A stretch of DNA of 64,000 nt from Eubacteriales bacterium (GTDB taxonomy: Bacteria > Bacillota > Clostridia > Oscillospirales > CAG-272), in the NCBI GenBank assembly GCA_045656745.1, contig JAZORT010000022.1, forward strand, positions 13,784-77,783, read 5' to 3'. This document shows positions 14,447 through 15,540 of the stretch, in pieces. The notes under the pieces were generated by a model. That model made no database searches, had not been told where the DNA came from, and worked only from the letters and a program-made list of their open reading frames with translations. Position numbers and translations under genes: made by a program. The first letter of the stretch is position 1; each line of letters begins with the position of its first letter.

Positions 14447-15532
14447 ATGAGAAGAACCAAACGGAGTTATAAAACATTTAATAAAAGAACAAGGGATAAA
14501 CTGGAAGCATTGTATAATGCTGGACTTCCTGTAAAAAAAATAGCAGAAGAGTTAGGGTATACACATCAAGCAATTTATCATGAATTGAAACGCGGTTATT
14601 ATATGCATCGTAATACAGATTGGACGGAAACAAGAAGGTATTCAGCAGATAAAGCGCAATTGTCGGCAGAAATAAACGCTACGGCAAAAGGTGCGCCTTT
14701 AAAACTAGGTAATGATAAAACCTTTGCAACATTCGTCGAAGATATGATTAAAAAAGGATATTCTCCAGGAGCTATTCTTCTTTATATCGAGGAAAACGGT
14801 CTTAAATTCAAAACAAAAGTATGTCGAGTAACCTTGTATAGTTATATAGAAAAAGGCGTGTTTCTTAAAATTAGCAATAAACACCTTTTGCGAAAAGGAA
14901 AGAGAAAAAACAAGGCAGATAGCCGAAAGCTTTCTAAAAAGTTACCTAACATAGAACATTCAATAGAAAAAAGAACGCAAGAAATTAACTCTCGACAAAG
15001 TTTCGGTCATTGGGAAGGTGATACTGTTATAGGCACGTTGAAAAAGGGTGAGACTGTTCTTACACTTACAGAACGCCTCACCCGCGCAGAGATAATTATA
15101 AAATCTCCTGATAAAACATCGGCAAGTACGGTTAGAATGTTTAACCGTCTAGAAAGAAGAATAGGAAGTATAAACTTCTGCAAAATATTTAAATCTATCA
15201 CCTTTGACAATGGTACGGAGTTTTCCGATGCAGAGGGGATAGAGTTTTCCCCATACACACATAAACGCAGAACAACAGTTTATTATTGTCACCCGTTTTG
15301 TTCGTCTGAACGAGGTTCGAATGAAAATCAAAACGGTTTCATACGAAGGTTTATTCCTAAAGGAACACCGATTTCGAATTATTCTGTTGCATATATACAA
15401 AGTGTGCAGAATTTTATTAATGATTATCCAAGAGCAATATTTAACGGAGAAAACAGTACAAAACGGTTTCAAAAAGAATTATCAAAACTTAATATTAAAA
15501 TTTTTTTACACAATTTGCAAATAACTACTTGA
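14447..15532 (+). CDS. tnp: IS30-family DDE transposase
   Basis: N-terminal HTH (VKKIAEELGYTHQAIYHELKRG). DDE landmarks are HWEGDTV, FDNGTEF and NENQNGFIRRFIPKGT. AAAGGAG RBS before ATG 14447. The stop lies inside the right inverted repeat. Confidence 0.9.
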   Translation: MRRTKRSYKTFNKRTRDKLEALYNAGLPVKKIAEELGYTHQAIYHELKRGYYMHRNTDWTETRRYSADKAQLSAEINATAKGAPLKLGNDKTFATFVEDMIKKGYSPGAILLYIEENGLKFKTKVCRVTLYSYIEKGVFLKISNKHLLRKGKRKNKADSRKLSKKLPNIEHSIEKRTQEINSRQSFGHWEGDTVIGTLKKGETVLTLTERLTRAEIIIKSPDKTSASTVRMFNRLERRIGSINFCKIFKSITFDNGTEFSDAEGIEFSPYTHKRRTTVYYCHPFCSSERGSNENQNGFIRRFIPKGTPISNYSVAYIQSVQNFINDYPRAIFNGENSTKRFQKELSKLNIKIFLHNLQITT

Positions 15533-15540
15533 CATTCGCA
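15515..15540 (-). repeat. right terminal inverted repeat (IRR candidate)
   Basis: The reverse complement TGCGAATGTCAAGTAGTTATTTGCAA shares the 11-nt core with 2818-2828, at the same 15-nt offset from the direct repeat. Confidence 0.6.

Follow-up and report, generated by a model that had tools for sequence, protein, structure and literature searches.

A candidate rolling-circle replicon with an IS30-family transposase as its integration module in a gut Clostridia genome

The closest described counterpart of the element reported here is AciCAG-E1, a pCRESS7 'integrated plasmid' at an intergenic site of 'Acidiphilium sp. CAG:727' (FR898463:2638..14917, 12.28 kb), which was listed with a 16-bp 'att' and whose IS30-family (COG2826) protein was labelled 'integrase' (Kazlauskas et al. 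2019, Nat Commun, PMC6668415 supplement). In the insertion sequence (IS) IS30 of E. coli, the left and right terminal inverted repeats (IRL and IRR) are joined through a 2-bp spacer to give the reactive intermediate, the junction carries a strong promoter, Pjunc, and insertion shows inverted-repeat (IR) targeting (PMC9333248). IS1630, an IS30-type element of Mycoplasma fermentans, generates duplications of 16-26 bp at inverted-repeat or hairpin-like targets (PMC3317919), and some plectroviruses depend on IS3- or IS30-family transposases (Kazlauskas 2019; 2026 taxonomy commentary). We analyzed 64,000 nucleotides of a Eubacteriales bacterium (assembly GCA_045656745.1, contig JAZORT010000022.1, positions 13,784 to 77,783; hereafter the window) and found that window positions 2803-15540 constitute a single integrated element of 12,738 bp, with an exact 15-bp direct repeat on both flanks. 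In all likelihood, this is an integrated rolling-circle replicon, of a type measuring about 11-14 kb, that uses an IS30 transposase and inverted repeats bounding its whole genome as its integration module.

Transposase and terminal repeats

The transposase gene (14447-15532, plus strand) encodes a 361-aa DDE protein of the IS30 family. The assignment was based on NCBIfam NF033563 (E 6.6e-66; 222.7 bits, where the cutoff is 80), phrog_4646 (E 2.7e-107), the HTH_38 and rve domains, and the intact catalytic motifs WEGD, FDNG, and NENxNG (NENQNG here). Its homologues number in the thousands, and the best 120, which are 70-92% identical, were from Clostridia and Oscillospiraceae gut assemblies. In related elements, the gene is always located at the right end. 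The right terminal repeat includes its TGA stop codon (15530-15532), which is 8 bp short of the tip at 15540, where similarity to the related elements stops. No tyrosine or serine recombinase domain was detected in any window open reading frame (ORF) of at least 89 aa. These observations, together with the relatives and the circular form described below, support a role of the transposase as the probable integrase of the whole Rep-encoding element.

The right end, IRR (15501-15540, plus strand), contains the IR core TTGCAAATAAC (15515-15525) and an outward-facing TTGACA (15529-15534) that includes the transposase stop codon. The right-tip motif CTTGACAT(T/C)xxx-3' is conserved at approximately 20 loci, and the DNA past it is unrelated. 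It is followed by the right copy of the target-site duplication (15541-15555), an exact match to the left copy, CTAAAAAAGCGCCCC (15 bp, 2788-2802). The left end, IRL (2803-2853, plus strand), begins with the tip TCTAAAGTT, which is kept in L001, L224, L007, L010, and L023 (related loci are designated by L numbers), and continues with TATAAT (2812-2817) and the IR core GTTATTTGCAA (2818-2828) within a hairpin (fold z -5.7). The 11-nt core GTTATTTGCAA is thus inverted at positions 16-26 from both tips, in register. Terminal inverted repeats of IS30 elements measure roughly 20-30 bp; those found here agree with this pattern as imperfect repeats with an in-register core of 11-15 nt. An IS in the strict sense spans about 1.0-1.7 kb, with its ORF reaching from IR to IR. 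Here, the ends are 12,738 bp apart with no internal left end, and the element is a replicon using IS30 machinery, not an IS in that sense.

Relatives were bounded by anchoring on the right tip (CTTGACATTxxx-3') and then searching for flanking direct repeats; an unguided search for the strongest inverted repeat gave too much noise, whereas anchoring on the duplications and the TTGACA tip worked. The complete relatives are L007 (15-bp duplication, 13.7 kb), L011 (16 bp, 13.5 kb), L023 (15 bp, 11.1 kb), L030 (14 bp, 12.4 kb), L032 (17 bp, 13.0 kb), and the internal deletion derivative L001 (17 bp, 4.8 kb). Across these six and the window copy, the duplications measure 14-17 bp, and each differs in sequence and host site. 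The IR core varies by lineage (GTTATTTGCAA in the window element and L001, TAAATGCGAAAA in L030 and L032, and ATATTxTTTGAA in L023), yet within any one element the two ends share it, in register. Such matched variation speaks strongly for the two distant ends being a cognate pair. Although the inverted repeat of the window is weak when taken alone, we accepted it because it is conserved and co-varies in the relatives. L001 (L001:6301-11091) lacks rep and most other genes but retains the transposase, the two ends, and a 17-bp duplication of its own; the deletion may have followed insertion, or L001 may be a non-autonomous 'mini' element that was mobilised as a transposon would be.

The first-pass annotation of this DNA had proposed that the DDE frame ends in the right repeat, that no left end lies near it, and that its only partner is located about 11.6 kb away at the far side of the element. 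All three points held, the partner being the left end at 2803 with its 15-bp repeat and in-register core. The same annotation had noted the lack of a classical recombinase and taken the transposase to be the integrase of a circle carrying an IRR-IRL junction, a proposal now backed by the bounded relatives, the junction of L224, and the cassette replacement relative to L007. It had named a canonical left end close to the transposase, or solo 1.2-kb copies elsewhere, as observations that would speak for a plain IS; we looked for both, in the window and in related contexts, and found neither.

An ordinary autonomous IS30-type IS of 1.2-1.6 kb could sit at the edge of an unrelated plasmid or prophage, in which case the distant left end and the 15-bp repeat would be coincidental or belong to another system. 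The weakness of the terminal repeat by itself (an 11-nt core, 16 of 30 positions matching) favors such an arrangement, and a 15-mer repeat is not rare by chance in 64 kb. Moreover, selfish and domesticated transposases are inseparable by sequence alone according to Roux et al. (2019), who categorised those of inoviruses as 'integration or selfish element'. The evidence from the ends, however, argues strongly in the other direction. In none of the seven complete elements does a left-end-like sequence occur within 1.2 kb 5' of the transposase, and in the window no partner repeat beyond chance, as judged with shuffled queries, was found in 13400-14470. Neither the transposase nor either tip has a second copy in the 64-kb window. 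Seven independent insertions have duplications directly next to the same conserved tips. Variation in the IR core at one end is matched at the other, and these tips are precisely those joined in the circular junction.

The surroundings of the closest transposases point the same way. Six contexts were fetched by transposase identity alone (L001, L002/L003, L222, L223, L229-L231, and L233/L234), and all six carry the upstream non-coding region of the element and its small minus-strand genes. Where the contig was long enough, they also contain the gene for a 750-aa protein (L002/L003, L222, and L229-L231, with a fragment in L001). Host DNA within approximately 600 bp 5' of the transposase was found in none of the six, and none is a solo 1.2-kb IS. 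All of these contexts are thus embedded in the element. The window element has no other recombinase, and we regard an autonomous IS as largely refuted and extremely improbable.

The comparison with L007 bears on which proteins and ends belong together. The DNA of the two elements is 90-95% identical over the small ORFs, rep, and the 750-aa gene, and at the protein level Rep is 95% and the 750-aa protein 92% identical, versus 64% for the transposase. No alignment was possible for the initial 44 nt of the left end or for the final 170 nt of the element, which include the IRR. Transposase, IRR, and IRL are adjacent solely in the circular form, and their joint replacement therefore indicates that the three cooperate and that these genomes recombine as circles. 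The comparison shows that the transposase and both ends were exchanged as a single cassette.

The same comparison bears on integration by other enzymes. The HUH-type Rep might insert the element into the chromosome by nicking and joining single strands, as in IS91, Helitron, and some single-stranded DNA (ssDNA) viruses, or host Xer might do so, leaving the transposase as a passenger. HUH endonucleases are able to integrate ssDNA elements, and host XerCD is used by some inoviruses, but such routes do not yield 14-17-bp duplications of arbitrary sequence. Furthermore, the ends track the transposase lineage and not Rep, as the window element and L007 differ in their ends while sharing nearly the same Rep, and the candidate origin hairpin (3562-3590) is internal, away from the boundaries. 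We consider this route hardly credible.

Circular form, junction promoter, and target sites

L224 is a MEGAHIT k141 contig of 13,788 bp whose first and last 141 nt are identical, and it therefore represents a circle of 13,647 bp. It shows synteny with the window element, at identities of 80% for the transposase, 72% for the 750-aa protein, and 56% for Rep, and its left-end genes come directly after the transposase. The right end of the window element aligns up to L224 positions 8112-8113, and the left end aligns from position 8116. The two tips are abutted with a 2-nt spacer (...CTTGACATTAGCG-GT-TCTAAAGTTTATAATG...), and the junction core reads ...GACATTAGCG-GT-TCTAAAG.... Abutted ends, a 2-bp spacer, and a junction promoter, the features known from IS30, were thus found in this relative rather than in the window copy, for which the predicted junction of the circle would be ...GACATTCGCA-NN-TCTAAAG.... 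This circle-type contig was recovered in the assemblies of three samples. The direct repeats are absent from the circular junction. Elements of tyrosine or serine recombinases share an att core, whereas the repeats here differ with each insertion, even between the window element and L001, which have the same ends.

In a promoter scan, the L224 junction matched at 12 of 12 positions (TTGACA-17-TATAAT), pointing into the left end. An analogous junction, TTGACT-17-TATTAT with GT at the same position, was observed in L225 and L226, which belong to a more distant lineage. In all of the bounded integrated copies, a -35 hexamer is located 5-7 nt from the right tip and a -10-like hexamer 6-9 nt from the left tip. 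The promoter would therefore be split by integration and rebuilt by circularisation. It is predicted to read into the left-end genes and rep, not into the transposase. The GT spacer is identical in L224 (8114-8115) and L225 (approximately 9637-9638), and the integrated copies lack GT at either tip; the shared dinucleotide may have arisen by chance (1 in 16), or the junction may be constrained to it. Directly past the junction promoter, the left-end hairpin that holds the IR core, together with a T-run, scores as a terminator (L224:8128-8175; window 2815-2860), and might serve as an attenuator or as a second transposase-binding site coupling occupancy to transcription. A second leader hairpin, with a T-rich arm, a GC core, and an A-rich arm, follows at 2854-2897 (plus strand; repeat I4 and fold), and the same architecture is present downstream of the junction in L224 and L225.

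Taken together, these features suggest the following cycle. The transposase would cut at the tips within the junction and paste the circle into the chromosome, preferably 11 bp upstream of a TTGACA-like sequence, that is, a -35 box resembling the IRR, and the left end would then face that promoter. New circles would arise from the integrated copy by copy-out, without excision, and would be kept and amplified by Rep. The junction promoter, composed of the IRR TTGACA, 17 nt, and the IRL TATAAT, would switch the replicon programme on only in the circle.

The reconstructed empty sites are AT-rich and intergenic. In eight of nine left flanks, the motif [G/T]TCAA lies to the left of the duplication at a distance of 11 nt, or 10 nt at one site. 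In the window, this motif is the -35 box (AGTCAA on the plus strand, 2771-2776) of the promoter of the left-flanking host gene (2748-2776, minus strand, TTGACT-17-TAAAAT with TG, by promoter scan). This promoter lies outside the element, 11 nt from the duplication, and reads away from it. GTCAA is the reverse complement of the TTGACA in the right tip of the element, and we infer that it may be recognised as an end-like target, by analogy with the IR-targeting of IS30. That GTCAA is itself part of the element was also considered and rejected, as it is missing from the circular junction and the flanking genes differ. Exact-protein look-ups with the transposase (two start codons) and both flanking host genes returned no match; hence, no empty site was recovered for the window insertion.

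The first-pass annotation had placed the window insertion in a terminator, likened its long duplication to those of IS1630, and called for a survey of homologous elements. The likeness to IS1630 stands, with duplications of 14-17 bp in seven elements instead of the typical 2-3 bp. The survey also bore out cognate ends and duplications of variable length. The right duplication copy indeed overlaps the minus-strand intrinsic terminator (15549-15571, by terminator scan) of the host gene at 15588-16436 (minus strand), whose 3' arm and T-tract were duplicated by the insertion, and a hairpin is located near the insertion in L007, L030, and L032. The terminator is not a common target, however; the feature shared among the sites is the -35-like GTCAA 11 bp to the left.

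Several insertions sit just 5' of rightward host promoters. In addition, the outward TTGACA of the right tip can pair with a flanking -10 sequence, as in L004 (TTGACA-16-TATAAT). These features were noted at L004 (approximately 9900-9940), L222 (approximately 11090-11180), and L007 (approximately 15330-15370). Insertion may alter the expression of neighboring genes.

Replication module, gene content, and relatives

The rep gene (3980-5134, plus strand) encodes a 384-aa rolling-circle Rep of the pCRESS7 type, with a HUH nuclease and a superfamily-3 helicase. Pfam matches to Rep_OBD (E 1.1e-8) and RNA_helicase (E 1.1e-9) were obtained, and the motifs HYH (at 45), YLTH (at 86), Walker A GTGKT (at 180), and Walker B ILDD (at 218) are present. 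The sequence is 53% identical to the Rep of AciCAG-E1 (CDE19587.1, E 2e-140). Domains, motifs, and identity thus all agree with a pCRESS7 Rep, which combines HUH and superfamily-3 helicase domains with YLxH in nuclease motif III. Accessory genes typical of pCRESS7 elements are a MOBV relaxase or the copy-control and SSB genes of phytoplasma plasmids; no MOB, SSB, or copy-control domain was found in any window ORF. Upstream of rep, the region 3468-3666 (plus strand) contains about eight GGTGTAT(T) iterons around a GC hairpin (3562-3590), as indicated by repeats and folding. The hairpin 24-mer GGCGCTGAGGGCTTGTCCAGCGCC is 100% identical in L007 and L224, while the surrounding DNA is just 64-92% identical. 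This region is likely to be the Rep nick site or double-strand origin. Between the origin and rep lies a 110-aa ORF (3667-3999, plus strand) that partly duplicates the nuclease domain of Rep, with the motif HYHIHL and 34% identity over Rep residues 6-96. It overlaps the start of rep and has no separate counterpart in L007 or L224; a truncated regulator and a remnant are both conceivable.

The product of the signature gene of the family (10554-12806, plus strand) is a polytopic membrane protein of 750 aa whose central part is a P-loop NTPase (GEMGIGKT). It matched no family in PHROGs, NCBIfam, PDB sequences, or Pfam, the last with E values up to 1 allowed, and its AlphaFold2 model was poor (pLDDT, the predicted local distance difference test score, of 54). 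Our guess is that it may be a DNA-translocation or morphogenesis ATPase. None of its 886 homologues has a Pfam domain. A profile scan with one genome per species gave 58 loci of this gene in Clostridia metagenome-assembled genomes and one in Bacilli, and in about half of the loci an IS30-type transposase lies 3' of it on the same strand. The sole phage-database record with a homologue (34.5% identity) is MT835493.1:31831-33924, a 57-kb unannotated 'Bacteriophage sp.' contig from human faeces. No match was obtained when the element was compared with phage records by megablast, when Rep and the 750-aa protein were used in single-protein IMG/VR scans, or when IMG/VR was scanned for the junction pattern.

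In L049, L055, L056, and L061, a G2P/ORF2-type Rep (PF23343) is encoded just downstream of a distant 750-aa homologue (32-39% identity), replacing the HUH-helicase Rep. One distant relative has a Rep with Rep_OBD only, and one Bacilli locus has an IS3/IS481-like rve transposase; the segments concerned in this group include L019:13138-13827 and L061:14153-15118. These swaps around the 750-aa gene indicate that replication and integration modules have been exchanged about a conserved core.

A large non-replicative IS30 transposon carrying rep as cargo might have similar ends, and its circle would then be a transient intermediate or a tandem dimer, with no use of Rep for maintenance. L001, with intact ends and its own 17-bp duplication despite the loss of rep, is in line with such a transposon, IS30 itself forms non-replicating minicircles and dimers, and one circle with terminal overlap was recovered. 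On the other hand, all nuclease and helicase motifs of Rep are intact, the 24-mer of the iteron-hairpin origin is perfectly conserved across diverged elements, and the junction promoter faces rep, not the transposase. The same circle-type contig in three samples would be unexpected for a rare intermediate. Relatives swap their Rep types (HUH with superfamily-3 helicase, Rep_OBD only, or G2P) and keep the 750-aa gene, as viruses and plasmids do, and a similar element has been reported to be enriched in virus-like particles. We judge the cargo explanation unlikely.

Several points nevertheless count against a Rep-maintained replicon integrated by its transposase. Transposase activity, Rep-driven replication, and promoter activity are all read from sequence. 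The window inverted repeat has 16 of 30 matches, its extreme tips match poorly, and the tip coordinates carry an uncertainty of 1-3 nt. Circularity is demonstrable for a single contig, and the same assembly would result from a tandem dimer in the chromosome. The 2-nt spacer of the circle stands against duplications of 14-17 bp; circle formation and target attack would therefore need different geometries, which is undocumented for IS30 itself. Judging from L001, some copies may move, or have moved, as plain transposons. Finally, scans of JGI metagenomes and IMG/VR with the transposase recovered only IS30 genes of 41-47% identity, with no other element genes.

The remaining genes are less readily interpreted. 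Two small conserved ORFs of 105 and 68 aa (2931-3467, plus strand, from the ORF list) have no family match, are 90-96% identical in L007 and about 40% identical in L224, and are the first genes past the junction promoter in the circular form. A block of membrane-anchored or secreted proteins (5086-9314, plus strand) comprises proteins of 235 aa (T/D-rich), 88 aa (very basic), 300 aa, 298 aa, and 470 aa. The 298-aa protein is a GDSL esterase (Pfam E 4e-16), a type that occurs fused to fibre proteins in phages, and also matches PHROG tail-fibre/virion esterase domains (E 2.6e-21); the other four have no family match. These proteins might be particle or surface proteins. Two small hydrophobic ORFs of 126 and 95 aa (9826-10493, minus strand, from the ORF list) are partly conserved in L004 and L007. 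Two further ORFs of 89 and 116 aa (12882-13498, minus strand), among which a phrog_23592 match was obtained (E 3.7e-7), adjoin the transposase module and are conserved in many loci by tblastn.

A conserved non-coding region of approximately 950 bp (13500-14446, plus strand) precedes the transposase and is 74-82% identical at the nucleotide level to L001, L222, and L223. It contains hairpins at 14008-14058 (z -8.2, a 20-bp perfect stem) and 14278-14350 (z -6.2). No Rfam family was assigned to it, with only sub-threshold matches to hairpins. The region is a candidate single-strand origin, regulatory region, or regulatory RNA. The short contig L223 begins about 114 nt past the expected position of the first hairpin, in sequence that is not alignable to the window.

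With respect to the nature of the element, the defining features of inoviruses are a Zot/pI ATPase and a module of coat proteins, whose small hydrophobic major and minor coat genes keep a conserved order. A Zot/pI-type morphogenesis ATPase was not found in searches of Pfam, PHROGs, NCBIfam, and PDB sequences, and the 750-aa protein is not a recognisable pI. The window ORFs gave no coat-family match in Pfam or PHROGs, although several small hydrophobic ORFs and membrane-anchored proteins are present, and no hallmark capsid gene was found in the element. The G2P-type Rep beside the 750-aa gene hints at a link to the Tubulavirales. Modularity, the esterase, and the membrane proteins lean towards a virus-like element.

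Comparison with known systems

The kind of system described here is already known, and a family member, AciCAG-E1, is already tabulated with an IS30 'integrase'. Possibly new are a promoter that exists only in the circle and faces the genes of the replicon, the replacement of transposase, IRR, and IRL as one cassette, and insertion at a position 11 bp upstream of -35 boxes in the host. The '16-bp att' of AciCAG-E1 may also be better read as a target-site duplication, which would correct the published label. From sequence alone, the analysis indicates how a widespread, barely described family of gut Clostridia elements could enter and leave chromosomes without a classical integrase. It also yields rules for boundary annotation: a right tip CTTGACATTxxx-3', a left tip 5'-N6-9 TATAAT, and a duplication of 14-17 bp. 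The junction switch, if true, would carry the Pjunc logic of IS30 beyond regulating the transposase to regulating an entire replicon.

A broader picture can be drawn only tentatively. It is possible that a family of gut Clostridia viruses or plasmids, marked by the 750-aa ATPase, combines an exchangeable IS30 cassette, a promoter switch that is active only in the circle and silent upon integration, and steering to sites 11 bp upstream of host -35 boxes that mimic the right end. Such a family would also explain the particle-packaged element reported in 2026, discussed at the end of this section.

AciCAG-E1 resembles the window element in its Rep family (53% identity, YLxH), size (12.28 versus 12.74 kb), intergenic location, direct repeat, and IS30 protein, and its annotation excerpt likewise shows no MOB, SSB, or copy-control genes. 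We compared it through the published tables and the Rep protein. The publication presents no mechanism, inverted-repeat ends, variable duplications, circular junction, junction promoter, or target motif. Another scaffold of the same genome carries a homologue of the 750-aa protein (L054).

IS30, a copy-out/paste-in element with a minicircle and an (IS30)2 junction and with hot-spot and IR targeting, shares with the window family the transposase family, the 2-bp junction spacer, a junction promoter split into -35 and -10 halves, and end-like targets. It differs in its length of 1.2 kb, its 2-bp duplications, and in that Pjunc drives the transposase. The window element, in contrast, is 12.7 kb long, has its own replication system and belongs with duplications of 14-17 bp, and its promoter faces the left-end genes, with the transposase about 11.6 kb downstream. 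The likeness to IS1630 consists, by description, in long and variable duplications; IS1630 itself is an ordinary IS of 1.2-1.4 kb.

Among viruses, the Plectroviridae (Spiroplasma SpV1-type vespertilioviruses) resemble the element as small circular replicons of the ssDNA type for which integration has been ascribed to IS3- or IS30-family transposases. Vespertilioviruses are said to have no Rep, whereas the window element has one. Bajarodino virus 13 (PQ006184), a 9.3-kb circular inovirus, encodes Zot, Rep, and an IS30-like transposase that is 41-43% identical to that of the window. The Faecalibacterium phage Lagaffe, a tailed prophage with an IS30-family integrase (45% identity), has in common with the element a gut Clostridia host and flanking direct repeats; it differs as a 48-kb double-stranded DNA myovirus with cos packaging and no rolling-circle Rep.

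The last comparison concerns an element of approximately 15 kb in Pumilibacteraceae MGBC157735 that is enriched in virus-like particles and whose mobilisation mechanism its authors did not identify (bioRxiv 10.64898/2026.07.08.737213). They searched the wrong repeats, namely those predicted by ISEscan. By description only, this element resembles the window family in its IS30 gene at the edge, its 15-bp direct repeats, the lack of any other integrase, and its gut Clostridia host, and the mechanism proposed here is a candidate for its mobilisation. Its Rep is of the inovirus-gp2 type, as in the distant relatives L049, L055, L056, and L061.

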